Positions 2,385-15,383 of a stretch of DNA of 17,679 bases are shown piece after piece. The notes beneath the pieces were generated by a model. That model was not told the origin of the DNA, searched no databases, and saw only the letters and a program-made list of their open reading frames with translations. The DNA comes from an uncultured bacterium (GTDB taxonomy: Bacteria; Lernaellota; Lernaellaia; Lernaellales; Lernaellaceae). A program made the translations under genes and the position numbers. Where the stretch lies: assembly GCA_964534375.1 (NCBI GenBank), contig CAZHPN010000133.1, positions 1 to 17,679 of the forward strand. Reading direction: 5' to 3'. How positions within the stretch are numbered: position 1 is the first letter of the stretch; each line of letters opens with the position of its first letter.

Positions 2385-4118
<1,734 letters not shown>

Positions 4119-4333
4119 CGCCGAATCCTTTTGTTGGACCGATCTTAGCATTTCCTGCGCAACCGGAGAAACTCACCAATCGTACGCGAGCGCGGCGCGG
4201 CGCGTTGTTTTTTTCCGGTTGCGCCAAACCACTCGAAATTGAGGCGATCCGAGGCTTTACAACCGCGGCGGCAACCACATATTCTCAAGACGTGAAAAGT
4301 ACCGATCGCGATCATGGTGATCTGGGAGAGGCC

Positions 4334-5941
4334 TTGCGGAAGCTGCGGCCGAAAAACTGGCATTTCAGCAACCGGCTGACGTTGATGACGCTCGTTTTCA
4401 CGCTGGCGCCGCTGACGATTTACGTCGGCATCGCGGCGCAACTCTTTCGCCGCAACATCGTCGCGTCGGCGGAAATGGAGCTGCAGCAGCAGGCGAAAGC
4501 CCTCATTATGCTTTGCGAAGCGCAGGAGGCGCTGGACCGGTTGACCAAATCGACGCCGTCGTCCGTCAAGGGCATCGACGCGGTCACCGGCGCCTCGCCG
4601 GGGGGTTGGCGGGAAGGCGCGCAATACCGCTCGTTGCAATCGATCATCATGGGCGCGCGCGTCGCGGCGTCCGGTTACGCCGACGTGTTCAACAGCGACG
4701 GCCGCCTGCTGATCCGGCCGCGCGAGGGGCCGAAGGACGGTTTCGATCCGCAGGAAGAAAGCGCGAACTTTCAGAAAAACATCCGCGAACGCGCGCTGCG
4801 CCTGCCCATCGGCGGCGTCGACACGATCCATTACGACGCGGTCGATGCGCGCGACCCCGCCCGCCGGTCGCGCGCGCGGCTGGCCGGCTTCGGTTACTTC
4901 AAACCGTACGACTGGATCGTGGTCGTCGGCTGCTACGAAGACGAACTGACCGCGCCCTACGCGGACGCCCGCCGGTTGTTTTATTTGATGATCGCGGTCC
5001 TGCCGTTGCTCGTCGGCGGGCCGGTGTTTTATCTCTCGCGGCGGATGATGCAGCCGATCGTGCAACTGACCGAATCCGCCTCGCGCATCGCGCACGGCGC
5101 GTTCGGGTCGGCCGCGCCGTTGGGCTCGCGCGACGAGATCGGCAAACTGACAGGCGAGTTCAATCTCATGCTCAACCGCTTGCACGAAGAGCAGATTCGC
5201 CAATTGCAGGAATGGAACAAAGATCTCGAACATAAAGTCGCGGAGCGAACCTTGGAGTTGGAGAAACGCGCGGCGCAGTTGAGCGGGCTGGCCTTCGATC
5301 TGACCCAGGCGGAAGTCCGCGAACGCAAACGGCTGGCGCAATTCCTCCACGACGATCTCCAGCAGTTGCTGGTCTGCACGAAGCTGTCGGTGTCCGCCGC
5401 GATGGCGAACAGCGCCGACGACAAGGCGCGCGAGTCCCTGGAGGACGCCAAGGCGCTGCTGGATCAATCGATCGCCGCATCGCGCACGCTGACTTCGGAA
5501 ATCTCGCCGCCGATTCTCAACGAAGGCGACCTGGCGGGCGTGCTCGATTGGGCGGCGCGCTGGATGCACGATAAACACGGCCTATCCGTCGAGGTGCGCG
5601 CCGATGCGGAGATCGAAACGCGCTTGGAAGTCCGCGTGCTGTTGTTCCAGGTGGTTCGCGAATTGTTGTTCAATGTCGTCAAGCACGCCGGGGTCGATCG
5701 CGCGGAAATCGCGCTGGCTCGTTGCGGTCCGGCCGAACTCTCGATCGTCGTGCGCGACAACGGCAAAGGCTTCGAGCCCCAAGCCGCGCGTCGCCCGGAC
5801 AAAACCACCGGCGGCTTCGGCTTGTTCAGCATCTGCGAACGCCTCCAATGGATCGGCGGCCGCTGCGAAATCGCCAGCGCGCCCGGCGAGGGCACGGCCG
5901 TCAAACTCTACGCACCAACGGCGGGAGACAGTTCGGGCTAA
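4334..5941 (+). CDS. Membrane sensor histidine kinase (TM-Cache-TM-HAMP-coiled coil-HisKA_3-HATPase; NarX/UhpB class)
   Basis: Cache motifs SGYADVFNSDGRLLIRP and YFKPYDWIVVVG. HAMP: PIVQLTESASRIAHG...DEIGKLTGEFNLM. H-box ERKRLAQFLHDDLQQLL, N-box ELLFNVVKHA, G1 DNGKGF, G2 GFGLFSI...PGEGT. Start uncertain: TTG 4334 follows GGGAG, and GTG 4292 is possible. The 4103 start would overlap the divergent gene. Confidence 0.9.
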   Translation: MRKLRPKNWHFSNRLTLMTLVFTLAPLTIYVGIAAQLFRRNIVASAEMELQQQAKALIMLCEAQEALDRLTKSTPSSVKGIDAVTGASPGGWREGAQYRSLQSIIMGARVAASGYADVFNSDGRLLIRPREGPKDGFDPQEESANFQKNIRERALRLPIGGVDTIHYDAVDARDPARRSRARLAGFGYFKPYDWIVVVGCYEDELTAPYADARRLFYLMIAVLPLLVGGPVFYLSRRMMQPIVQLTESASRIAHGAFGSAAPLGSRDEIGKLTGEFNLMLNRLHEEQIRQLQEWNKDLEHKVAERTLELEKRAAQLSGLAFDLTQAEVRERKRLAQFLHDDLQQLLVCTKLSVSAAMANSADDKARESLEDAKALLDQSIAASRTLTSEISPPILNEGDLAGVLDWAARWMHDKHGLSVEVRADAEIETRLEVRVLLFQVVRELLFNVVKHAGVDRAEIALARCGPAELSIVVRDNGKGFEPQAARRPDKTTGGFGLFSICERLQWIGGRCEIASAPGEGTAVKLYAPTAGDSSG

Positions 5942-6095: not shown

Positions 6096-6102
6096 GGGCT
6101 CC

Positions 6103-6906
6103 ATGATTTCACCGCAAATCCTGCTCACCGACTTCGACGCGCGGCAGTGGATCAACCTGCTGGCGCTGCTCGCGCCGGCGAAGGCGCCGCCGAAAAGTTA
6201 TCTGGTGTGCATTCTGGACGGCGAACGGTGTCTCAAGGCGTGGCACAGCAAGAAGGGCGTGCTGTGGGGTTTCCCGTTTCCGGGCCTCGAGCGGCTCGAA
6301 GAGGCGCGCGAAAGCGCCGGGGCCGACGTCGTCTTGTGCCTGCCGCGCGGGGCCTTGCAAGAGATATTTTATCATGCGCAGGAAGCCGTGCGGCCGTTTG
6401 ACGACGTTGTGAAGCAGGCGCTCGACATGATCGCCGCCGGACGCGACGCGGTCGACCGTGTCGGAACATGGTATCCTCAGAAACCTGTTGATTTACAATT
6501 ATATAAGTATGAAAAATTAGAGAAATACTTTAACAAATTCTGGCCCGATGATTCCGCCCTGGGGCTTTTCGTTTTTGAGGGCAAACAGGTGCACACGTCG
6601 GCGATACTTGGCAAAGATCACGGCGAGATCAACGTGTTCACGACGCTCGACGCGTTTGGCATGTCCGATCAGGCGCTCGATTGGCGCACCAACTGGAAAG
6701 CGCTCGCCGGGATGGTCGCCCAGCGCTTCGCGCCGCTGCACTCGGCGTTGTTCGTCGAGTTGTCGTCGTTGCGCGAAATGCGCGCCGGCCCGCGCCCGCT
6801 CACGTACCTCCGGCTCGCCGAAAAGCGGGGGCGCGCGCTGATCTACCCGAAGCCGTTCGCCCTGAAACTGGCGCTTTGGGCGGGACGCATCTTCAAGGGT
6901 ATGTGA
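6103..6906 (+). CDS. Hypothetical soluble protein (267 aa)
   Basis: Protein-like composition begins at MISPQILLTDFDARQWINLL. The ORF-track extension to 5722 is Arg-rich and overlaps the kinase. The stop is 4 nt before the next ATG, suggesting an operon. No motif recognised. Confidence 0.8.
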   Translation: MISPQILLTDFDARQWINLLALLAPAKAPPKSYLVCILDGERCLKAWHSKKGVLWGFPFPGLERLEEARESAGADVVLCLPRGALQEIFYHAQEAVRPFDDVVKQALDMIAAGRDAVDRVGTWYPQKPVDLQLYKYEKLEKYFNKFWPDDSALGLFVFEGKQVHTSAILGKDHGEINVFTTLDAFGMSDQALDWRTNWKALAGMVAQRFAPLHSALFVELSSLREMRAGPRPLTYLRLAEKRGRALIYPKPFALKLALWAGRIFKGM

Positions 6907-6910
6907 CGAA

Positions 6911-8989
6911 ATGGCGGGCGACTACGCGTTGGACGAAGCGGACGGGCCGTCTCGCCGGCAGGAAACCGCGATCTGGGCGCTGCTCGGAATTGCCTGGCTC
7001 TTTATCTACGGCATTCGCTTTCTGGCGGACTCGGGCTTTGCCGCGGACGAAGCCTCCACCGGCGATCTGGCGAGCGGCCTGGTCGATGGACTGGCGGCGT
7101 CGCACTGGCATTACCAATACCAAACGGGCCATGGCGCCCAGGTGTTTGGCGTGCTCCTCGCGCCATTTTACTATTGGGGCGGCTCGCAGTTTCTCTGGAT
7201 CAAGATCGTAGGCGCGCTCTTCATTGCGGGCGGCGTGTCGGTCTGGGTCCGGTTGGTTCGGCGCGCGTGGGGATTTTCGGCGGCGACGATCTTTTTCCTG
7301 CTGCTGCTCGCGCCCCCGCCGTTTTTGGAAGTGCACGCGCACCACTTTTTCGGCAACCACGTCGAGAGCATTTTCTTTACAGGCTTGCTGATTTGGCAAT
7401 TTCTCAAGATGAACGAACGCGAACCGACGCGTGGCGAGTTCGCGCTGCTGGGCCTCAGCGCAGGCTTTGCTTCGTTTTTTTGCGCGCAAAATTTCGCCAC
7501 GGCGGCCGCGGTTTTTATGGTCGTGGTCTGGCGGTGGGGCCGGCGCGGCGCGGTTGGGCTGATGTGGGCGGCGCCGCTATTCCTGTCGATGATGGCGTTG
7601 AATCTGGCCGATCCGCGGCTCACCGGATTTTTTACGACGCAATCGACGATGCACCCCCACCTCGCCGCGCGTTGGGGGCGGCTGCTCGGACAGTGGCTGC
7701 CGCTCCTGCCGGGTTACGACGGGATATGGCGCGGCGTCTCGGTCGCCACGATGGCCACAGCCCTCATCGGCATGGCGCTGGGGCTGGCGAAGCCGACGCC
7801 GGTCTACCGCAGCGACGGCGCCCCGCAACCCGACTGGCTGATCCGGATCTTGTACCTCTATTTGGCGTTCTTTTTCGCGGCTTACAGCCTGACGAACCAC
7901 GTTTTTCGCGATCCGGACGAAGTGTATTCGCTCGACGGCGCGCGCTACTTGATGCTGGCGTTCATGGCGTTCCTGGCGTTTGCGGCCTACGCCTTGCGAC
8001 GCCTGCCCGGGGCATGGAAATACGTCGTCGCCGCGCCGATTGTCGCGGCCGGATCGGTCTACGCCGCGTCCGGGGTGTCAATGACGCAGGAGTTTTTCGT
8101 CGACAACTGGCGAGCGATGACCGCGATGCGCGGCGACGACTATGACTATTTGATTCGCGCCAACTTGCCGCTGGACGCTCGCCCGAAACCGGAATCCCCG
8201 TTTTCGTTGAAAGTCGTCGCCGCCCTGCCGCGACGGTGGCGCGAGTTCGGCTGCCAGAATCTCGGCGAACGGTTGGCGCCCGACGAGGCGCTGAACCTGG
8301 TGCGCGACCAGCCCGCCTCGCTGGGTCTTTGCCGCGAAACGATCCCGGCCGGCATGGGCGCCAAGATCGCCGGCATGGCCGTGCACGGCCACCCCGAGGC
8401 GCTCGACAATTTTTTGGCGCGCCACGGGAATTATCCGGCGCGGTTGGCCGATCTCTCCTGCAAAGACGCCGCGGAATTCGTCGAGGGCCTGGGTTACGGC
8501 ATCGTGCGCGGCAACGAAGAAAAATCGCCTTTTTTTCGATCGCAGGCGTTTGTCGCCTTGGCCGAAGACGGCCGCGATTGGCGGGAAACGCCGGCCGATT
8601 TGGGGCGGCAACGCGCCGAATTGGCGCCCATCGCGGGGGCGCTGCGGCAATTGACGCCGGCCGATTTTGCGGCCGCCTTTTCGCACGGCGCCGGTCGTCG
8701 GTTGGGTTTCAACAAACTCCTGGGCGGCGTCATGCCAGCGGACTACGTCCGATTTTGGGGCGGTTTCGCGGATTTTCAGCCGACGCCCGAGGCCGTGACG
8801 TCATTCAATGAAGGTGTCCTGGCCGGTCAGGCGCAATTGCTGATCTCGTATTACAACCGCTTCGTTCTGCAGCCGCCGTTTGTCGATCTGCCGGGAATTC
8901 GCGCGGCGTTGGCGCGTCGCGGGGTTTCGCTGCGGGCCGTTGCCGGGCGGGAGAATGAGTTTGCGCTGGAATTCGGAAAAGGCGGGTGA
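6911..8989 (+). CDS. Polytopic membrane protein, probable GT-C-fold (ArnT/PMT-like) glycosyltransferase with a C-terminal soluble domain
   Basis: An acidic DE pair follows TM1 (GFAADEAS). About 10 or more hydrophobic segments in the first ~390 aa, with GNHVES, GLSAGFASF and late RY motifs. A helical C-terminal domain follows. The CDS is secure; the function is inferred. Confidence 0.65.
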   Translation: MAGDYALDEADGPSRRQETAIWALLGIAWLFIYGIRFLADSGFAADEASTGDLASGLVDGLAASHWHYQYQTGHGAQVFGVLLAPFYYWGGSQFLWIKIVGALFIAGGVSVWVRLVRRAWGFSAATIFFLLLLAPPPFLEVHAHHFFGNHVESIFFTGLLIWQFLKMNEREPTRGEFALLGLSAGFASFFCAQNFATAAAVFMVVVWRWGRRGAVGLMWAAPLFLSMMALNLADPRLTGFFTTQSTMHPHLAARWGRLLGQWLPLLPGYDGIWRGVSVATMATALIGMALGLAKPTPVYRSDGAPQPDWLIRILYLYLAFFFAAYSLTNHVFRDPDEVYSLDGARYLMLAFMAFLAFAAYALRRLPGAWKYVVAAPIVAAGSVYAASGVSMTQEFFVDNWRAMTAMRGDDYDYLIRANLPLDARPKPESPFSLKVVAALPRRWREFGCQNLGERLAPDEALNLVRDQPASLGLCRETIPAGMGAKIAGMAVHGHPEALDNFLARHGNYPARLADLSCKDAAEFVEGLGYGIVRGNEEKSPFFRSQAFVALAEDGRDWRETPADLGRQRAELAPIAGALRQLTPADFAAAFSHGAGRRLGFNKLLGGVMPADYVRFWGGFADFQPTPEAVTSFNEGVLAGQAQLLISYYNRFVLQPPFVDLPGIRAALARRGVSLRAVAGRENEFALEFGKGG

Positions 8990-9128: not shown

Positions 9129-10127
9129 GTGACAGCGAACGATCCCAACCAAACCCCCGACGCCCCGAGCGTGCTGCTGCCGGACGCCGAGGTGCTGCGG
9201 CACATCCTCGGCCACGGCGACGAGAACCTGCGCGTGATCGAGGAAGCGCTCGGCGTGCGCCTGTCGGTGCGCGGCGACCGCCTGTTCGTCCGCGGGCCGC
9301 AGGAGCATTTCCGCCTCATCAAGCAGCTCTTCGAGGAACTCTACGGCCTGGCGGCGGAGGGCTTTCCGATCTACGCCACCGACGTCGAACATGCGCTGTC
9401 GATCTTGCGCTCGGGCGGCGCCGTTCGCCTGCGGGATATTTTCCTCGATACGGTTTTCGTTTCGGACAAGAAGCGCGTCATCGCCCCGAAGTCGCTGCAT
9501 CAAAAGATGTACATCGACGCGATTCGGCAGCACGACATCGTTTTCGGCATCGGGCCGGCGGGCACCGGCAAGACGTACCTGGCGATGGCGATGGCCGTCA
9601 GCCACCTGGTCAAAGGCGAGACCGATCGCATCGTGCTCGTGCGCCCGGCGGTCGAGGCCGGCGAAAAACTCGGCTTCCTGCCCGGCGACATCGCGGAGAA
9701 GGTGAACCCCTATCTGCGCCCGCTGTACGACGCGTTGCACGAGATGATGCCGTTCGAAAAGGCGCAGCGGCTGATCGAACGGCAGATCATCGAGGTGGCG
9801 CCGCTGGCCTTCATGCGCGGCCGCACGCTCAACGACAGCTTCGTCATTCTGGATGAGGCGCAAAACAGCACGCCCGAGCAGATGAAAATGTTTCTGACGC
9901 GGCTGGGCTTCCATTCGCAGGCGGTCATCACGGGCGACGATACGCAGATCGACCTGCAAAACGGCCAGGAATCGGGGCTGATCGTCGTGCAGCGGATTTT
10001 GCAGAACATTGAGGGCATTGTCTTCGTGCGCTTCGACGAGACCGACGTCGTGCGCCACCACCTCGTGCAGCAAATCATCATCGCCTACGATCGCTACGAC
10101 AAACAGACGCGCAAGGACAAGCCGTGA
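9129..10127 (+). CDS. ybeZ: PhoH-like ATPase (YbeZ/PhoL type, with N-terminal KH-like region)
   Basis: Walker A GPAGTGKTYLA, RPAVEAGEKLGFLPGD, PYLRPLYDAL, APLAFMRGRTL, ILDEAQN, KMFLTRLG, ITGD.TQIDL and DVVRH. GTG start follows AGGAAAGG. Confidence 0.96.
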   Translation: MTANDPNQTPDAPSVLLPDAEVLRHILGHGDENLRVIEEALGVRLSVRGDRLFVRGPQEHFRLIKQLFEELYGLAAEGFPIYATDVEHALSILRSGGAVRLRDIFLDTVFVSDKKRVIAPKSLHQKMYIDAIRQHDIVFGIGPAGTGKTYLAMAMAVSHLVKGETDRIVLVRPAVEAGEKLGFLPGDIAEKVNPYLRPLYDALHEMMPFEKAQRLIERQIIEVAPLAFMRGRTLNDSFVILDEAQNSTPEQMKMFLTRLGFHSQAVITGDDTQIDLQNGQESGLIVVQRILQNIEGIVFVRFDETDVVRHHLVQQIIIAYDRYDKQTRKDKP

Positions 10128-12484
10128 ATGAGCATCCGCCGCGTCCGCGTTCGGCCGGCCGCCTGCGCAAGTGGACCGCCGCGTGGCGCAAGACGCGCCT
10201 CGGCCGTGAAATCCTGACCGAACCGTGGACAATGGCGTTGATTGCGGCGTGCGTGCTGTCGGCGTTGATCACCCCGCGCCTGGGCCTGCCGCTGAAACAC
10301 TTCCGGACCGGCTCGTTTGCCGACTCGGCGATCAAGGCCTACCGCGATTTCGACGTCGAAGACGTGACGAGCACCGAGAAGCGGCGGCAGGAGGCCGCGT
10401 CGTCGGTCCCGCCGGTGTTCGATTTCGACGCGCACGCGGCCGAGCGGCAGGTGAAGAAACTCGACGACGCGTTCGCCGAGATGCGGACCTTCCTCGGCGT
10501 CGAGGACAACGCGGACGGCGGCAAAACCGCGCCGGCGTTGCCGCCGCGGCCGGCGCTGGAGGAGCAGGAAGGCCGCCTATTGCAGGCGCTGGGCGTCACG
10601 CTCGACCGCAAGACGCTCGACTTCCTCGCGAAAGACGGCTATTCGCCGGCGATCGCGGCGGATATCCGCGATCTGTTGAATTACGGGCTGTCGCACCTGA
10701 CCGTGAGCGACCGCAAGTCGCTGCCCGAGCAGACGGCCGAGCGGCTGATCACCTTGCGCGAATTGGGGGCCAAGAAAGAACGGCCGTATGGCAATCTCGA
10801 CCAGATTGTCGACATGTCCCGCCTGCAGGACCAGTTGGAAAAACGGGCGCGGCAGAATATCGACGATCCGCCGCGCCGCGCCGTCGCCCTGGCGATCGCC
10901 TCGGCGTTGACCACGCCGACCCTCGAATACAACATGGCGGCGAGCGAAGAACGGCGCGCCGAAGCCCGCGCCGACGTCGGCCCGAGCATCATCCATTTCC
11001 GGAAAAACCAGTTGATCGTGGCCGAGGGCCAGCAGATTACCGACGACCACCTGCGCATTCTCGCGGCGATGCAGGAAGGGGCGGGCGCCGCGCACACGCT
11101 GACCACCTTCCTCGCCTTTACGGCGATGGTCTTCCTGATGATCGCCGTCGTCTTCCGGTTCGCGAACCGCTACGTCCGCAAATTCAAACCGACGATGCGC
11201 GACTACGCGTTTCTGCTGACCACAGCGGTGTTCGCCGGCGCGATGGCCTGGGTCGCTCGCGAGGTGGCGCCGCCGCTGGCGGATTCGTTCGGCTGGATGA
11301 CGCGCGAATCGATCCGCTATCTTTTCCCGGTCGCGGCGTTCGGGATGCTGATCCGCTTCCTGATGTACAGCGAGGCGGCGCTGGTCTGGGTCGGCTTCGC
11401 GTCGCTGGCCGCCGGGCTGATTATGGACGGCTCGCTGGCCTACGCGATTTATTTCCTGGTCGGCTCGGCGATCGGCGCCCACCAGATCGGCCAGGCGCAA
11501 GGCAGCGGCCGGTTCCTGCGCGCCGGCTTGCTAGTCGGCGTCGGCAACGCGGCCGTGGCGCTGGCGACCCAGCTCATCGGCGACCCCGCGTCGCTGGCGA
11601 CGCCGGCCACGCTGGTCAACCTCGCGGCGGCGGCGCTCGGCGGCCTGCTGACGGGGCCGTTCGTGCTGGCCGCGGTGCATCCGCTGGAGGCGATCTTCGG
11701 TTATACGAGCAACCTGCGGCTGATGGAGTTGGCCAACCTGAACCACCCGCTGCTCGGCCGGATGCTGGTCGAGGCCCCCGGCACGTACCACCACAGCCTG
11801 ATGGTGTCGGCGCTGGCCGAGAAAGGCGCGGAGTCGATCGGGGCCAACCCGTTGCTGGTCAAGGTCGCGGGCCTCTATCACGACATCGGCAAGATCAACA
11901 AGCCGCACTATTTCATCGAAAATCAGATCGAAGGGCAGAACCCGCACGACGGCCTGCCGCCGCACATGTCCGCCCTGATCCTGATCGGGCATGTGCGCGA
12001 CGGGCAGGAACTCGCCCGCCACCACCGCCTCGGCGAACGCATTTCGCAGGTCATCGCCGAGCACCACGGCCGCTCGCGGATCAATTATTTCTACAATCGC
12101 GCCAAGCAGCAGGAGACCGCCGAGCGCGAGAAGGTCAACGAAGAGGAGTTCCGCTATCGCGGGCCGTATCCGCAGTCGAAGGAAGCGGCGCTGGTGATGC
12201 TCGCCGACGTCGTTGAGGCCGCGACGCGCAGCCTCAAGCAGCCGACGCCGGCGCGGATCGAAACCAGCGTCAACGAGTTGATCAGCAACGTGTACAACGA
12301 CGGCCAACTCGACGAGTGCGAGATGACCTTGCGGAACCTGCACGGCGTCGCCGCGCAGTTCACCACCCTCCTCACCGGGCGGTACCATGGGCGGATCGAA
12401 TATCCCGAAAAAGAGCAGCCGAAAAAAGGGAAAATCATCAATCTTCCTGCGAGTGGATCGCCCAACGCCGGCTCCAATCACTAA
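10124..12484 (+). CDS. pgpH: 7TM-HD (HDIG) membrane phosphohydrolase, PgpH-like cyclic-di-AMP phosphodiesterase
   Basis: N-terminal TM, large extracytoplasmic 7TMR-HDED region, multi-TM block, then LMELANLNHPLL, EAPGTYHHS, YHDIGK, HVRDG, EHHG, FRYRGPYPQSKE, MLADVVEAATRSL and RIEYP. Canonical position between phoH and ybeY. The c-di-AMP substrate is inferred from the family. Confidence 0.9.
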   Translation: MNEHPPRPRSAGRLRKWTAAWRKTRLGREILTEPWTMALIAACVLSALITPRLGLPLKHFRTGSFADSAIKAYRDFDVEDVTSTEKRRQEAASSVPPVFDFDAHAAERQVKKLDDAFAEMRTFLGVEDNADGGKTAPALPPRPALEEQEGRLLQALGVTLDRKTLDFLAKDGYSPAIAADIRDLLNYGLSHLTVSDRKSLPEQTAERLITLRELGAKKERPYGNLDQIVDMSRLQDQLEKRARQNIDDPPRRAVALAIASALTTPTLEYNMAASEERRAEARADVGPSIIHFRKNQLIVAEGQQITDDHLRILAAMQEGAGAAHTLTTFLAFTAMVFLMIAVVFRFANRYVRKFKPTMRDYAFLLTTAVFAGAMAWVAREVAPPLADSFGWMTRESIRYLFPVAAFGMLIRFLMYSEAALVWVGFASLAAGLIMDGSLAYAIYFLVGSAIGAHQIGQAQGSGRFLRAGLLVGVGNAAVALATQLIGDPASLATPATLVNLAAAALGGLLTGPFVLAAVHPLEAIFGYTSNLRLMELANLNHPLLGRMLVEAPGTYHHSLMVSALAEKGAESIGANPLLVKVAGLYHDIGKINKPHYFIENQIEGQNPHDGLPPHMSALILIGHVRDGQELARHHRLGERISQVIAEHHGRSRINYFYNRAKQQETAEREKVNEEEFRYRGPYPQSKEAALVMLADVVEAATRSLKQPTPARIETSVNELISNVYNDGQLDECEMTLRNLHGVAAQFTTLLTGRYHGRIEYPEKEQPKKGKIINLPASGSPNAGSNH

Positions 12485-12878
12485 ACTGTTGCGCGACCTC
12501 GCCGTGCAGGCGCTGGCCCGTCTCGGCCGCGGCGGCGAGCGCCTGGAAATCGCGCTGGTGGACGACGAGGAAAGCCGGCGCGTCAACCGGGATTTTCTCG
12601 GGCGCGACCGGCCGACCACCGTCATTTCGTTCGCCGGCGACGGCCCGGGCGACATGGGGCAATTGATCGTCAACGTCGACGAAGCCGAGCGCCAGCGCGG
12701 ACCGGCCGGTTATGGACTTTCGCGGATGTTGGGTTACTATGTCTTGCACGGGATGCTCCATCTGGCGGGCTACGATCACGAACGTGGCGGCGCGGCCGCG
12801 GCGGCGGCAATGGCGGCGAAAGAAGAATCGCTTCAGGAACTGCTGCGTCCGCTGGCGTCCGGCGAGGGAGACGAATGA
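12387..12878 (+). CDS. ybeY: rRNA maturation endoribonuclease YbeY
   Basis: Zn motif HGMLHLAGYDH and NRDFLGRDRPTTVISF, in the expected operon position. The start is ATG 12387 or GTG 12453. Confidence 0.93.
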   Translation: MGGSNIPKKSSRKKGKSSIFLRVDRPTPAPITKLLRDLAVQALARLGRGGERLEIALVDDEESRRVNRDFLGRDRPTTVISFAGDGPGDMGQLIVNVDEAERQRGPAGYGLSRMLGYYVLHGMLHLAGYDHERGGAAAAAAMAAKEESLQELLRPLASGEGDE

Positions 12879-13714
12879 GCGAAAAGGACGAACTGCCGCG
12901 CGGCGGGTGGCGGCGGTTTTTTCGCCGCTTTCGGCGCCCGGCGGACGTGGACAAGGCCACCGAAGAAGCGCTCAGCGACATGGAGGAGAGCGGCTTCATC
13001 GACCCGGAAGAGAGCGAGATGATGCAGGGCGTCCTCGATCTCGACAAAACCACTGCCCGCGAAATTTTCGTGCCGCGCACCGAAATTGTTTTCGTCGACA
13101 CGAAAGCGCCGCTGCCCGAGGTCATCGCCCGGCTTCGGGAGTCGGGCCTCAGCCGCCTTCCGGTCGTCGACGGCAGCGTCGACAAGCCGCTCGGCTTCGT
13201 GCACGTCAAGGATTTGCTGCGATTCTGGGGCCGCGAAAGCGAATATGATCTCACGGCGGTTCTGAAGCCCGCCTTCCACGTGCCGGAATCCAAGAAGCTC
13301 GACGACCTGCTCGAGGAATTCCAGCAAAACCGCGAGAAAATCGCCCTGGTCGTCGACGAATTCGGCGGCACCAGCGGCTTGGTGACGATCACCGACATCC
13401 TGGAAGAGATCGTCGGCGACCTCGGCGACGACGCCGAAACGCGCGAAGAGTCGCGGGTCTTTTTCGCCGACGAGAATATGCTCGTCGTTCCCGGACGCTT
13501 CGCCATCGACTTGTTGCGCGAGCGTTTCGGCGGCGAGGCGCCGGCCGGCGCGTTCAACACGGCCGCCGGCTGGATCCTCGATCGCACGGGGCGCGTGCCG
13601 CAAACCGGCGAGACGTTCGAACTCGACGGCTTCACCGTCAAGATCGAGGCCGCGACGGAGAGGCATATCCGCAAAGTGTCGGTGCGCCGGATGCCGGCCG
13701 CGCCCGACGAATGA
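12875..13714 (+). CDS. corC: CBS-pair plus CorC_HlyC domain protein (CorC/YbeX type, no TM domain)
   Basis: AREIFVPRTEI, SGLSRLPV, GFVHVKDLL, PAFHVPESKKLDDLLEEF, ALVVDEFGGTSGLVTITDILEEIVGD and TAAGWILDRTGRVP. ATGA overlap with ybeY. Confidence 0.92.
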   Translation: MSEKDELPRGGWRRFFRRFRRPADVDKATEEALSDMEESGFIDPEESEMMQGVLDLDKTTAREIFVPRTEIVFVDTKAPLPEVIARLRESGLSRLPVVDGSVDKPLGFVHVKDLLRFWGRESEYDLTAVLKPAFHVPESKKLDDLLEEFQQNREKIALVVDEFGGTSGLVTITDILEEIVGDLGDDAETREESRVFFADENMLVVPGRFAIDLLRERFGGEAPAGAFNTAAGWILDRTGRVPQTGETFELDGFTVKIEAATERHIRKVSVRRMPAAPDE

Positions 13715-13727
13715 GCGCCGCTCGCGG

Positions 13728-15383
13728 ATGACTCGCCTGCGAAAAATCATTTGGACGACCTCTGGTCTGGCGGCCCTGCAAGTCGCGCTGTCTTGGAACC
13801 GCTCCGTCTATGACGACGCTTACATCACCTTTCGTTACGCCCGCAATCTGGCCCGCGGCCTCGGGCCGGTCTACAACGCCGGCGATCGCGTCGAGGGCTG
13901 CACCGCGTTTCTGCAGATGGCGCTGCTGGCCCCGTTCGCGCGGCTCGGCGTCGATTTGCGCTTGGCCGCCGCCGTCATCGCCTTCGCCTGCCTGACGGCG
14001 GTCGCCGCGGCCGGCGCGCGGTTCATCATCCGCGCGGAAGCCGCCGCCGGCGAACCAACCGCGTGGCCGTGGTTCTTCGCGCTGATGCTCGTCGCCTGCC
14101 CGCCGACCGTCTATTACGCACTCTCCGGCTTGGAAACGATCTGGTTCGCCGCCGCCGCGTTCGCCGCCTTGTTGCTCGCGGCGGGCGAAGCGGAGGCCGA
14201 TCGCCCTCCGCTCGCCTCGGCCCTGGCGGCGACGGTCGCCGCCTTGCTGCGGCCCGACGGCGTCGTGCTGGCCGGCGCGATCGGCGTGTTCTGGCTGACG
14301 TGCGCGCCGCGGCGCCGCCTGGCGCGGGCGGCGGTGTTCGGCGCGGCGTTCGCCGTGCTGTACGGCGCGTATTTCGCCTGGCGGTATTCGTATTACGGCT
14401 GGCTGCTGCCCAACACCTATTACGCCAAGGTCGACGGAATCAGCCTGCGGTTGACACTGCGCGGGTTGCTGTACGTTGCGCGTTCGACGCCGTCGATGCT
14501 ATTCCCGGCCGTGCTCGTTTGGTTGCTGGCGCAGACGCTGCACCGCCGCTTGCCGTTGGCGCTTTGGGAAAAAGCCTTTCTACTGGCGATCGGCGCCCAA
14601 GTCGCGCTGGCTGCGGCGACCGGCGGCGACTACATGCCCTACTACCGCTTCCTTCAGCCGGCGTGGCCGCTGTGTCTGCTGCTGATCTGGGGGCTGAGCC
14701 GCAAGCTGGCCGCCGATGTCAGCCCCGGCGGCCGGATGGCGCGGTGGTGGCGGCTGCGCTTGTCGGTTGGCGGTGTCGTCGCGCTGGCGCTGGCAGTGAA
14801 CATTTTGCTGTGGCTCGCCGATTTCAACGGGCTCAAGGCGATGATCGCCTCCAGCCTGACGCGTTCGTGGGAGCGGACGGCCGAGCAGTTGAAGCCGCTG
14901 CTGCCGCGCGACGCGGTGGTCGCCGCCGACGCGATCGGCGCGGCGGGCTACATCGGCGATCTGCCGTTGATCGACATCATGGGCTTGACCGACGCGACGA
15001 TCGCCCACCTGCCGATTGCCACGGGCAAGGGCATGGCCGGCCACGAGAAATACAGCCCGGATTATATTCTGTCGCGGGCGCCCGATTTCATTCTCACCTG
15101 CACGATGGAATGGCCGCGCCCGGCGCCGGCCTGCCTCGGACCGCGCGCCGAGACCGACACGATGCGGCTGGCGCCGCGGGTTCGCGAGCAATACGTGTAC
15201 GCCAATCACGCGATTCCCGGCGGCTACGTCGGCACGTATCTGCGCCGCGATCGCCTGGGCCGCGCCGGATACGACGGCTGGTTCGCCAGTTACCAAACGA
15301 TCGGCCTGGAGGATCTCGCGCCCACGGACCACGACTTTAAAGGGTTCTTGCGTTATTCGCCGAACGGCCCGGCCGGACACTGA
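13728..15383 (+). CDS. GT-C-fold membrane glycosyltransferase, AftB-like arabinofuranosyltransferase family
   Basis: The N-terminal loop DDAYITFRYARNLARGLGPVYNAGDRVEGCT resembles the AftB-type DD...RN...G.GPV.N.GERVE motif. Also SGLET, RPDG, PNTYYAK, GGDYMPYYRF, IDIMGLTD and GHEK, with many TM helices. Sugar specificity is unknown. Confidence 0.75.
   Translation: MTRLRKIIWTTSGLAALQVALSWNRSVYDDAYITFRYARNLARGLGPVYNAGDRVEGCTAFLQMALLAPFARLGVDLRLAAAVIAFACLTAVAAAGARFIIRAEAAAGEPTAWPWFFALMLVACPPTVYYALSGLETIWFAAAAFAALLLAAGEAEADRPPLASALAATVAALLRPDGVVLAGAIGVFWLTCAPRRRLARAAVFGAAFAVLYGAYFAWRYSYYGWLLPNTYYAKVDGISLRLTLRGLLYVARSTPSMLFPAVLVWLLAQTLHRRLPLALWEKAFLLAIGAQVALAAATGGDYMPYYRFLQPAWPLCLLLIWGLSRKLAADVSPGGRMARWWRLRLSVGGVVALALAVNILLWLADFNGLKAMIASSLTRSWERTAEQLKPLLPRDAVVAADAIGAAGYIGDLPLIDIMGLTDATIAHLPIATGKGMAGHEKYSPDYILSRAPDFILTCTMEWPRPAPACLGPRAETDTMRLAPRVREQYVYANHAIPGGYVGTYLRRDRLGRAGYDGWFASYQTIGLEDLAPTDHDFKGFLRYSPNGPAGH

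Follow-up and report, generated by a model that had tools for sequence, protein, structure and literature searches.

The DNA analysed here (the window, 17,679 nucleotides, contig CAZHPN010000133.1 of the uncultured Lernaellaceae bacterium GCA_964534375.1, a genome designated G000 below) encodes a sensor histidine kinase whose periplasmic Cache domain contains, at residues 82-88, the heptapeptide DAVTGAS (codons GAC GCG GTC ACC GGC GCC TCG, positions 4577-4597). This heptapeptide has the form of the tag onto which ApbE transfers flavin mononucleotide (FMN). Judging from sequences and structural models, we consider it fairly probable that the sensor represents an undescribed class of ApbE substrate, namely a Cache redox sensor carrying covalent FMN. 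The protein would then probably be the first known extracellular redox sensor with a flavin tag. A preliminary description of the window had already proposed an FMN-tagged periplasmic redox sensor, and the results below support this prediction: neither a loss of the motif in homologues nor an absence of apbE from the genome was seen.

Conservation of the motif was analysed on a family of proteins collected in two steps. A word-seeded search with the sensor gave 31 proteins, 30 of which align over their full length, and an exhaustive phmmer search brought two further members. Of these 33 proteins, P0035 was excluded, being a fragment that starts past the region. The pattern D..[ST].A[ST] was found at the homologous place in all 32 proteins covering the region, down to approximately 30% identity, with the strict motif in 20 of them, a Ser at the glycine position in 6, and R, K or Q in the last 6. 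It was also present in all 35 rows of the alignment. Numbering residues from the TTG codon at 4334, which starts P0005 (535 amino acids, a copy of the window kinase at 100% identity and coverage), the column counts were 35/35 for D82; A25, G3, T2, S2 and others at position 83; V20, I8 and others at 84; T25 and S10 at 85; G22, S7, R3, K2 and Q1 at 86; 35/35 for A87; S34 and T1 at 88; 33/35 for P89 and 35/35 for W92. Column entropy is 0 at D82 and A87, and 0.19 at S88. The columns that stay fixed in this loop coincide with those prescribed by the ApbE motif in the literature, D-x-x-[S/T]-G-A-[S/T], and its x positions vary. According to PMC12052999, the terminal Ser/Thr of the motif is the acceptor, and the seven residues are enough as a tag. 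The sole acceptor substitution observed was from Ser to Thr, as DGVSGAT, in P0036, the most divergent member, and at locus L016.

Comparing the motif with its flanks, as proposed in the preliminary description, gave a clear answer: no 7-mer in the periplasmic domain has a higher entropy than residues 74-80, in the linker that precedes the motif, where indels are also present. The lowest-entropy 7-mer lies in the helix LCEAQEALDR, in which C61, E62, A63, Q64, E65, A66 and R69 are invariant (35/35). When metagenome loci were seeded by the word [ML]LCEAQEA alone, 23 out of 23 carried the motif downstream. G000 itself encodes four sensor paralogues, each with LCEAQEA[LI]DRL and the motif, and the other genomes one each. 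Cys61 is the sole invariant periplasmic cysteine, and several relatives devoid of the motif keep it too. An obligatory Cys61-Cys200 disulfide was considered and rejected, the second Cys (in GCYEDE) being Ala or Ser in many members.

How often such a heptapeptide occurs by chance was estimated on the 29,723 stop-to-stop six-frame open reading frames (ORFs) of at least 100 amino acids of G000. The strict pattern D..[ST]GA[ST] had 32 matches in 7,470,081 residues, a rate of about 4×10−6 per residue, which corresponds to about 8×10−4 expected matches per 176-residue domain. One strict match somewhere in the genome is expected by chance, and a single match proves nothing. The kinase motif is more than chance because it is conserved in 32/32 proteins, in 35/35 rows and in 23/23 independently seeded loci. 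It is also confined to this family. A phmmer search against 1.84 billion representatives returned 298 matches at E ≤ 10−3, and by our reading of the best 150 of these, only six had E ≤ 10−15 together with an alignment reaching across the N-terminal helix and the motif loop. The remaining 148 matches listed are non-members, in which the motif is missing at the homologous place, and most of them cover the Cache core alone. The relaxed pattern occurred in nine of the non-member proteins, at unrelated positions only (residues 344-679). Four closer single-Cache (sCache) relatives, P0040, P0044, P0066 and P0075, have a shorter linker, without the motif.

As a negative control, we used an exported beta-propeller lipoprotein of G000 (contig C3) which contains an exact DAVTGAT. 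None of its 16 homologues, compared at 39-77% identity, keeps the motif, and only GA[ST]P is conserved. This protein (L042:3473-6139, or G000:C3:73472-76138) is a fusion of a YncE/lactonase-type beta-propeller with a phosphoesterase of the phospholipase C/acid phosphatase family. It was discarded as a candidate ApbE substrate, its DAVTGAT being a chance match.

The kinase ORF lies on the plus strand at 4103..5941 and is open from an ATG at 4103; its product includes LTKSTPSSVKGIDAVTGASPGGWREGAQY. The architecture of the protein, with its two transmembrane segments (TM1 and TM2), is TM-sCache-TM-HAMP-HisKA_3-HATPase, and its features are the following.

4334..5941, plus strand: sensor histidine kinase gene, 535 amino acids from TTG 4334 (Pfam: Cache_3-Cache_2, HAMP, HisKA_3, HATPase_c).
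4376..4447, plus strand: TM1, residues ~15-38, after a basic cytoplasmic N-terminus (sequence reading; within the modelled helix 11-73).
4511..4540, plus strand: invariant periplasmic helix LCEAQEALDR, residues 60-69, including Cys61 at 4514-4516 (alignment).
4541..4576, plus strand: variable linker, residues 70-81, differing in length and sequence (entropy, indels; modelled as coil).
4577..4597, plus strand: ApbE-type flavinylation motif D82-A-V-T-G-A-S88, with Ser88 (4595-4597) as predicted FMN acceptor (translation, alignment).
4598..4609, plus strand: conserved tail of the motif, P89 and invariant W92 (alignment; P89 in 33/35 rows).
4610..4948, plus strand: single-Cache (sCache_2-like) core, with the conserved strand GYFKPYDWI (Pfam, Foldseek).
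4976..5038, plus strand: TM2, residues ~215-235 (sequence reading; modelled helix 207-234).
5033..5188, plus strand: HAMP domain (PF00672, 45.5 bits, cut-off 25).
5321..5512, plus strand: HisKA_3 dimerisation/phospho-acceptor domain, H-box FLHDDLQQ (PF07730, 37.1 bits, cut-off 24).
5633..5920, plus strand: HATPase_c catalytic domain (PF02518, 48.5 bits, cut-off 26.4).

The N-terminus, MRKLRPKNWHFSNR, is basic, and TM1 and TM2 flank the Cache region before a cytoplasmic HAMP domain; we infer from this that the motif faces the extracytoplasmic side. Translation and topology agree here with the preliminary description, which had placed DAVTGAS in a periplasmic loop between the helix following TM1 and the Cache core. 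Assignment of the core to the single-Cache class relies on a long N-terminal helix and a PAS-like alpha/beta core between two transmembrane segments, together with profile and fold matches. In Pfam, the Cache_2 half only of Cache_3-Cache_2 scored 37.4 bits (cut-off 27.7) and sCache_2 23.2 bits, slightly below its cut-off of 25. Foldseek matched the model to the single-Cache sensors 5g4y, 3ub9, 2qhk and 4k08 (E from 3×10−5 to 2×10−4), and the neighbours of the sensor in the Protein Atlas were generic Cache clusters only. The transmitter has both the H-box and the HATPase_c domain expected of a HisKA_3 kinase of the NarX/UhpB/DesK type. Residues 1-235 were modelled with AlphaFold2 on the 35-row alignment (mean pLDDT confidence 81.5). 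A single long helix spans residues 11-73 and is followed by a coil (74-88), then by the Cache core. Confidence falls below 50 at residues 79-83 and 85-88, which is in keeping with the flexible look earlier ascribed to this segment.

A complex was then modelled between ApbE (17-row alignment) and sensor residues 39-214 (35 rows), with flavin adenine dinucleotide (FAD) and Mg. The ipSAE score, a measure of model confidence, was 0.94, 0.93 and 0.93, compared to 0.02 for the best of three controls. Among solved complexes, 116 of 157 reach the mark of the tool, and among mismatched pairs 2 of 215 do so. At least 71% of the contacts are common to the runs, and the pLDDT of the partner is at least 78. 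On the sensor side, the confident interface comprises residues 65, 68-69, 72, 74-78, 80-92 (its core), 121-124 and 190-193. On the ApbE side (numbering of the modelled chain), it comprises residues 204-209, which pair as a strand with sensor residues 82-85, residues 230-238, with the invariant T-S-G-D-Y, and residues 264 and 266, S264 and T266 lining the cleft. The model thus supports a placement of the motif loop, residues 80-92, in the active-site cleft of ApbE. In the available passages of a 2025 review on ApbE, no solved ApbE-substrate complex is named and the phrase "in complex with" is missing, which makes recall of a known complex by the model less likely.

The enzyme itself is encoded in G000. 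This genome (381 contigs, 94.4% complete) has a single ApbE, with a score of 244.9 bits (match at G000:C10:43132-43977), whose gene occupies G000:C10:42982-44052. The window has no apbE, as the preliminary description had correctly noted. The ApbE product starts with a lipoprotein signal (MKSF...LALAAC, lipobox) and aligns with solved FAD:protein FMN transferases (E ~10−34), with both SGDYE and NH-ILD retained. When the ApbEs of relatives, 17 in all, are aligned, twelve columns are invariant, and the family-invariant residues are conserved in the G000 protein. In contrast to the enzyme, its known substrates were not detected: Pfam searches of G000 returned no FMN_bind, no NQR2_RnfD_RnfE and no Rnf-Nqr match (4 of 14 control genomes positive for each), and no DUF2271 match (2 of 14 positive). 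DUF3570 was also at zero, but since 0 of 14 control genomes was positive, this carries no conclusion, and the control was again silent for G003 and G006. These two genomes (98% and 84% complete) resemble G000 in possessing ApbE and the sensor, with no FMN_bind, RnfD or DUF2271 by Pfam. The ApbE of G000, G003 and G006 is an orphan with respect to known substrate families, and the remaining sensor-bearing genomes of the phylum possess Rnf-type substrates. According to the parts of Meheust et al. (2021, PMC8238504) available, 4% of genomes have an orphan apbE, which implies substrates still to be identified, and DUF2271 and DUF3570 were found through this same logic.

Two other readings of the apbE locus and its product were discarded. 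A multi-TM protein encoded 3 kb upstream of apbE contains DGFSGAS, within a TM stretch, and its tandem paralogue is devoid of the motif. As to an ApbE limited to FAD pyrophosphatase activity, the residue that distinguishes the two Ftp classes is an Asp in the G000 protein, by our own reading of the alignment; this does not discriminate, because both Ftp classes transfer FMN onto protein substrates (PMC4767422).

Gene order around the sensors was examined by Pfam. A sigma-54 NtrC-type regulator follows the kinase in eight tested loci (L002, L045, L046, L048, L049, L057, L061 and L062), and a Peptidase_M54 gene comes after the regulator in eight (L046, L049, L054, L055, L056, L057, L061 and L062; the L062 contig ends shortly past it, so that the downstream side is out of view). 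In six loci (L049, L054, L055, L056, L057 and L061), the kinase operon is faced by a cluster encoding two GCV_H-like proteins, NrfD, a Fer4_11 protein with a twin-arginine translocation (Tat) signal, and usually a small cytochrome c. As L049 and L051-L056 are closely related, these six loci amount to about three lineages. Multiheme cytochromes c, or cytochrome c/b561 fusions, are encoded upstream at L049, L053 and L054. The NrfD/Fe-S cluster is missing at L002, L045 and L060. Going by gene order, this quinone/Fe-S/cytochrome neighbourhood would fit the targets expected of a periplasmic redox sensor.

The transmitter is not constant in the family. The preliminary description had spoken of a NarX/UhpB-class kinase, and this holds for the window protein and P0008, which alone carry HisKA_3; the other members carry HisKA and are accompanied by the sigma-54 NtrC-type regulator. 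The sensor is 76-82% identical between the window kinase and its closest HisKA members despite the different transmitter, which indicates that it moves as a module. The break between the HisKA_3 proteins (window kinase, P0008) and the HisKA proteins P0006 and P0007 falls after the HAMP/coiled-coil, at about residue 320, and from the sequences looks like a recent domain swap.

We infer the following course of events, from attachment of FMN and the seat of the flavin in or on the Cache fold to a redox change as signal and any role of Cys61. ApbE, as a lipoprotein facing the periplasm, would use FAD to form a phosphoester link between FMN and Ser88, the terminal Ser of D82-A-V-T-G-A-S88, which would be accessible in the flexible segment joining the long N-terminal helix to the Cache core. 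Tethered in this way, the flavin may then pack on a conserved face of the Cache domain, to which W92, the strand FKPYDW and the invariant helix CEAQEALDR, including Cys61, contribute; the FKPYDW strand is also part of the predicted ApbE docking interface. Once bound, the flavin would serve as a readout of redox conditions in the periplasm or in its electron carriers, and its oxidation or reduction would shift the N-terminal helix, a movement relayed through the TM, HAMP and dimerisation/phospho-acceptor (DHp) segments to alter kinase output. A flavin-thiol switch at Cys61 is purely speculative.

These elements can be joined into a broader scenario, which we offer as tentative. A Cache domain would have acquired an RnfD-like tag and, matured by ApbE, would read the redox poise of periplasmic electron carriers, with flavin chemistry at Cys61 as a possible ingredient (for instance a switch of the thiol/disulfide or adduct type, driven by the flavin and acting across the dimer helix). 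Its output would be sigma-54-dependent expression of NrfCD-type quinone modules and multiheme cytochromes, and in some genomes ApbE would have been kept solely for the sensors after loss of Rnf/Nqr. If true, this scenario would account for part of the orphan-apbE genomes that Meheust et al. 2021 could not explain.

Several observations weigh against flavinylation of the sensor. First, the motif is imperfect in part of the family. R, K or Q replaces the glycine in 6 of the 32 members, including a G000 paralogue on contig C44 with DAMTRAS, and according to PMC12052999, even changing G to A roughly halves flavinylation of a tested substrate. Of the 32 members, 31 have Ser as acceptor, and according to the same source ApbE favours Thr, a Thr-to-Ser change costing 10-55%. 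Second, the sensor belongs to no proven substrate family (FMN_bind, NQR2_RnfD_RnfE, DUF2271 or DUF3570), its Pfam matches being Cache, HAMP, HisKA_3 and HATPase_c only; if flavinylated, it is therefore a new substrate class. Third, no neighbourhood ties the sensor to apbE. By tblastn, none of 36 sensor loci (23 metagenomic and 13 genomic, 1.1-20.7 kb) contains an ApbE homologue, so that the neighbourhood argument fails, and in G005, where the sensor and apbE are on one contig, 160 kb separate them. The preliminary description had proposed to look for apbE both in the genome and beside the homologues: in the genome it was found, with its lipoprotein signal, and beside the homologues it was not. 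Moreover, the window kinase has no response regulator or redox genes nearby, and no NarL-type regulator is encoded in the window. Fourth, ApbE is present in all 11 sensor-bearing genomes of the phylum, but also in 16 of its 17 genomes and in 45 of the 61 searched overall; the co-occurrence, which is limited to the phylum since outside carriers such as L049 and L057 are known from contig pieces only, is thus uninformative. Fifth, the orphan argument relies on Pfam models and draft genomes, and the complex score is a model confidence obtained with our own alignments and added ligands, which places it outside the calibration of the tool. Finally, a gene that overlaps the apbE stop, conserved and translationally coupled, could be the real ApbE partner.

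This last gene (L039:10046-10900, or G000:C10:44045-44899) starts 8 bases before the apbE stop and encodes a protein of 284 amino acids with one N-terminal TM and no Pfam match. An orthologue with 39% identity occupies the same position after apbE in G004 (L031:2414-3265). Its product is possibly a partner or a substrate of ApbE. As a carrier of the motif it was rejected, ..HESGAT.. being missing in the G004 orthologue; it remains a candidate partner.

Among the alternatives to a flavin-tagged sensor, the one that survives best is an unmodified loop, which would serve the Cache domain as ligand lid or contact, or as dimer or partner interface, the likeness to the ApbE motif being a coincidental convergence on the small residues T-G-A-S-P. 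We regard it as unlikely, though deserving serious consideration. Its supporting evidence starts from the fold: to go by the titles of the structures, the sCache_2 relatives PscD (5g4y), TlpB (3ub9) and 4k08 bind small ligands without a cofactor, and Cache domains are generally seen as ligand binders in the accessible text of bioRxiv 10.64898/2026.02.01.703092. The substituted glycine in six members and the lack of apbE adjacency point in the same direction, and in the unrelated propeller family conservation is limited to GA[ST]P, which forms a structural turn there. However, in the sensor the invariant columns are exactly those of the ApbE motif, the only acceptor replacement is from Ser to Thr, and the loop is modelled as disordered although it is invariant. 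An unmodified loop also leaves aside its modelled position in the ApbE cleft, with an ipSAE of 0.93 against 0.02 for controls, and the retention of ApbE in three genomes without a known substrate.

Alternatively, the family may be flavinylated, with the flavin acting as an electron-transfer site between periplasmic cytochromes and another acceptor, and the kinase regulating or tethering this activity. All characterised ApbE substrates are electron-transfer proteins, according to the passages available of PMC8238504, and homologues of the sensor stand beside multiheme cytochromes and NrfCD-type modules. We nevertheless find this very improbable: each member is a complete HAMP-DHp-ATPase kinase, no stand-alone form came out of a search without length limits, and the sensor retains 79-82% identity across the exchange of HisKA and HisKA_3 transmitters, as a sensory input module would. 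The sigma-54 response regulator adjoining all eight HisKA-type loci tested also argues for signalling, although none is near the HisKA_3 copy of the window.

Even lower in our estimate comes another modification of Ser88 or Thr85 (O-glycosylation or phosphorylation), or a protease or maturation site, without ApbE being involved. Modification sites in general are typically found in loops of this kind, invariant, rich in Ser/Thr and with predicted disorder, and the eight loci cited above have a conserved Peptidase_M54 gene after that of the regulator. On the other hand, we know of no other modification system for D-x-x-[ST]-G-A-[ST], no glycosyltransferase or kinase is conserved beside the homologues, and the ApbE docking result weighs against it. 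As for a pure chance match without function, it has a negligible probability, for despite the 32 or so strict matches in the ORFs of G000 and the non-conserved exact match of another exported protein, it is refuted by conservation in 32/32 proteins and 23/23 loci, to about 30% identity and beside a hypervariable linker.

A flavin-tagged Cache sensor would have its nearest model in NqrB/RnfD, in which ApbE installs a phosphoester-bound FMN on the last Thr/Ser of the motif. In relatives, RnfD (PF03116, E 4×10−121) has DAVTGATPLG (G005) or DTVTSASPLG (G060), and RnfG has DALTGATISPRA. The sensor versions, DAVTGASPGGW or DAVTSASP..W, are nearly the local sequence of RnfD; the two sites share an extracytoplasmic location and would be modified by one and the same enzyme. 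DAVT[GS]ASP has therefore natural precedents, since RnfD shows all three features, a Pro after the acceptor, Ser in the fifth position and Ser as acceptor. The likeness stops there, as there is no homology beyond the ~9-residue motif: RnfD spans the membrane several times as part of a redox complex that pumps ions, whereas the motif of the sensor lies in a Cache loop of a histidine kinase. The FMN_bind proteins (NqrC, RnfG, NosR and PplA; PF04205), DUF2271 and DUF3570 share the motif class, and differ from the sensor by its Cache fold, by an apbE that is not adjacent, and by its predicted role in signalling instead of electron transport.

With cytoplasmic PAS-flavin sensors, the likeness concerns the principle. 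These combine a PAS-like fold with a flavin whose redox or photochemical state is relayed via a flanking helix to a kinase or a receptor. Aer, NifL and MmoS bind FAD, and LOV kinases bind FMN, with a conserved Cys beside the flavin in LOV. Their flavin is non-covalent (or forms a transient Cys adduct) and cytoplasmic, and their domain is PAS, not Cache; the window kinase has no Pfam match to the PAS family. Among sCache_2 sensors, PscD (5g4y), TlpB (3ub9) and Adeh_3718 (4k08) share the fold, the membrane topology and the YF.P.DW strand, and differ in binding small molecules directly. The relatives P0040, P0044, P0066 and P0075, once aligned, have neither D..[ST]GA[ST] nor the CEAQEALDR helix, and several keep the Cys. 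Lastly, sCache_heme (DUF3365/Tll0287) is, in the accessible text of bioRxiv 10.64898/2026.02.01.703092, a single-Cache extracytoplasmic sensor with a short insertion holding a covalent-cofactor motif, and with signalling outputs. Its c-type heme is attached to CXXCH between beta3 and beta4; the predicted FMN would be on a Ser, in the loop between helix and core. As no CXXCH occurs in the sensor domain of the kinase, the sensor is an analogue of sCache_heme and not a member.

The architecture, which the preliminary description did not recognise as characterised, indeed appears to be new: no published report of a flavinylated sensor domain was found in the full-text literature searched, a scope outside which lie the large cluster tables of PMC8238504, and no paper with both a flavinylation term and "sensor kinase" was among the matches listed. 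The words "kinase", "Cache" and "sensor" are missing from the main text of PMC8238504, and kinase or Cache terms from the readable 5.4 k characters of its supplement. "Kinase", "sensor" and "signal" are missing from Huang et al. 2024. In the 2025 ApbE review, "kinase" occurs once, where the structure of ApbE is set against that of kinases, and "sensor" never.

ApbE-type flavinylation is so far known in electron-transfer proteins only, and a flavinylated kinase, if true, adds signalling to its roles. Cache domains form the largest class of bacterial extracellular sensors and were thought to be cofactor-free until the heme-Cache preprint of 2026; one with a covalently bound flavin would be the first such extracytoplasmic sensor domain, and a second, chemically distinct case in which a short cofactor-attachment motif was recruited into a sensor domain. 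It would offer a candidate substrate for some of the orphan-apbE genomes (the 4% of the survey in the accessible part of PMC8238504), and would answer, for one case, how a bacterium directly measures redox outside its cytoplasmic membrane. The domain could also make a compact, genetically encodable and self-fluorescent periplasmic redox reporter.

Some further observations were made on the sensor loci. The cluster facing the kinase operon was located at L049:13088-17737, L057:7101-12401 and L061:13017-18206, as well as in L054-L056. It lies on the opposite strand, in the order of two GCV_H-like genes, NrfD, the Tat-signal Fer4_11 protein, which has a C-terminal anchor, and the small cytochrome c. 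The GCV_H-like proteins are 223-273 amino acids long across loci; one of the two has an N-terminal TM helix, and neither has an obvious lipoyl-lysine context. To our knowledge, GcvH-like proteins in an NrfCD-type module are not a recognised arrangement.

The closest paralogue of the window sensor in G000 (L040, G000:C44, 12489-13345; 76% sensor identity, motif DAISGAS) is broken in the assembly. By tblastn, residues 1-175 match at 12489-13010 and residues 171-235 at 13151-13345, with ~140 extra bases and a frame change between them. Its counterparts P0007 and metagenome L045:9956-11707 are intact, with 583 amino acids. The break reflects an assembly error or, alternatively, a disruption that happened recently.

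In the window, the kinase has as neighbours an oppositely oriented gene for a GxGYxYP protein, genes for unknown membrane proteins and a phoH/7TM-HD/ybeY/corC housekeeping block. The GxGYxYP protein (2385-4151, minus strand) has a lipoprotein-like signal followed by a long Asp/Asn run, DDDDNDNDNDDDNDDDNNDDD. The same D/N-rich acidic tether follows the signal in several other predicted lipoproteins of G000 and of relatives (L040:5791-7077 and 10354-11826; L061:3429-7203). Downstream of the kinase, the ORFs at 6100-6906, 6911-8989 and 13728-15383, all on the plus strand, had no Pfam match at E ≤ 0.001. The 692-amino-acid product of one of these downstream ORFs is a polytopic membrane protein with a faint match to DUF6044 (E 0.0076). 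The housekeeping block, at 9129-13714 on the plus strand, encodes a PhoH-like ATPase, a 7TM-HD membrane phosphohydrolase, a YbeY endoribonuclease and a CBS/CorC protein.

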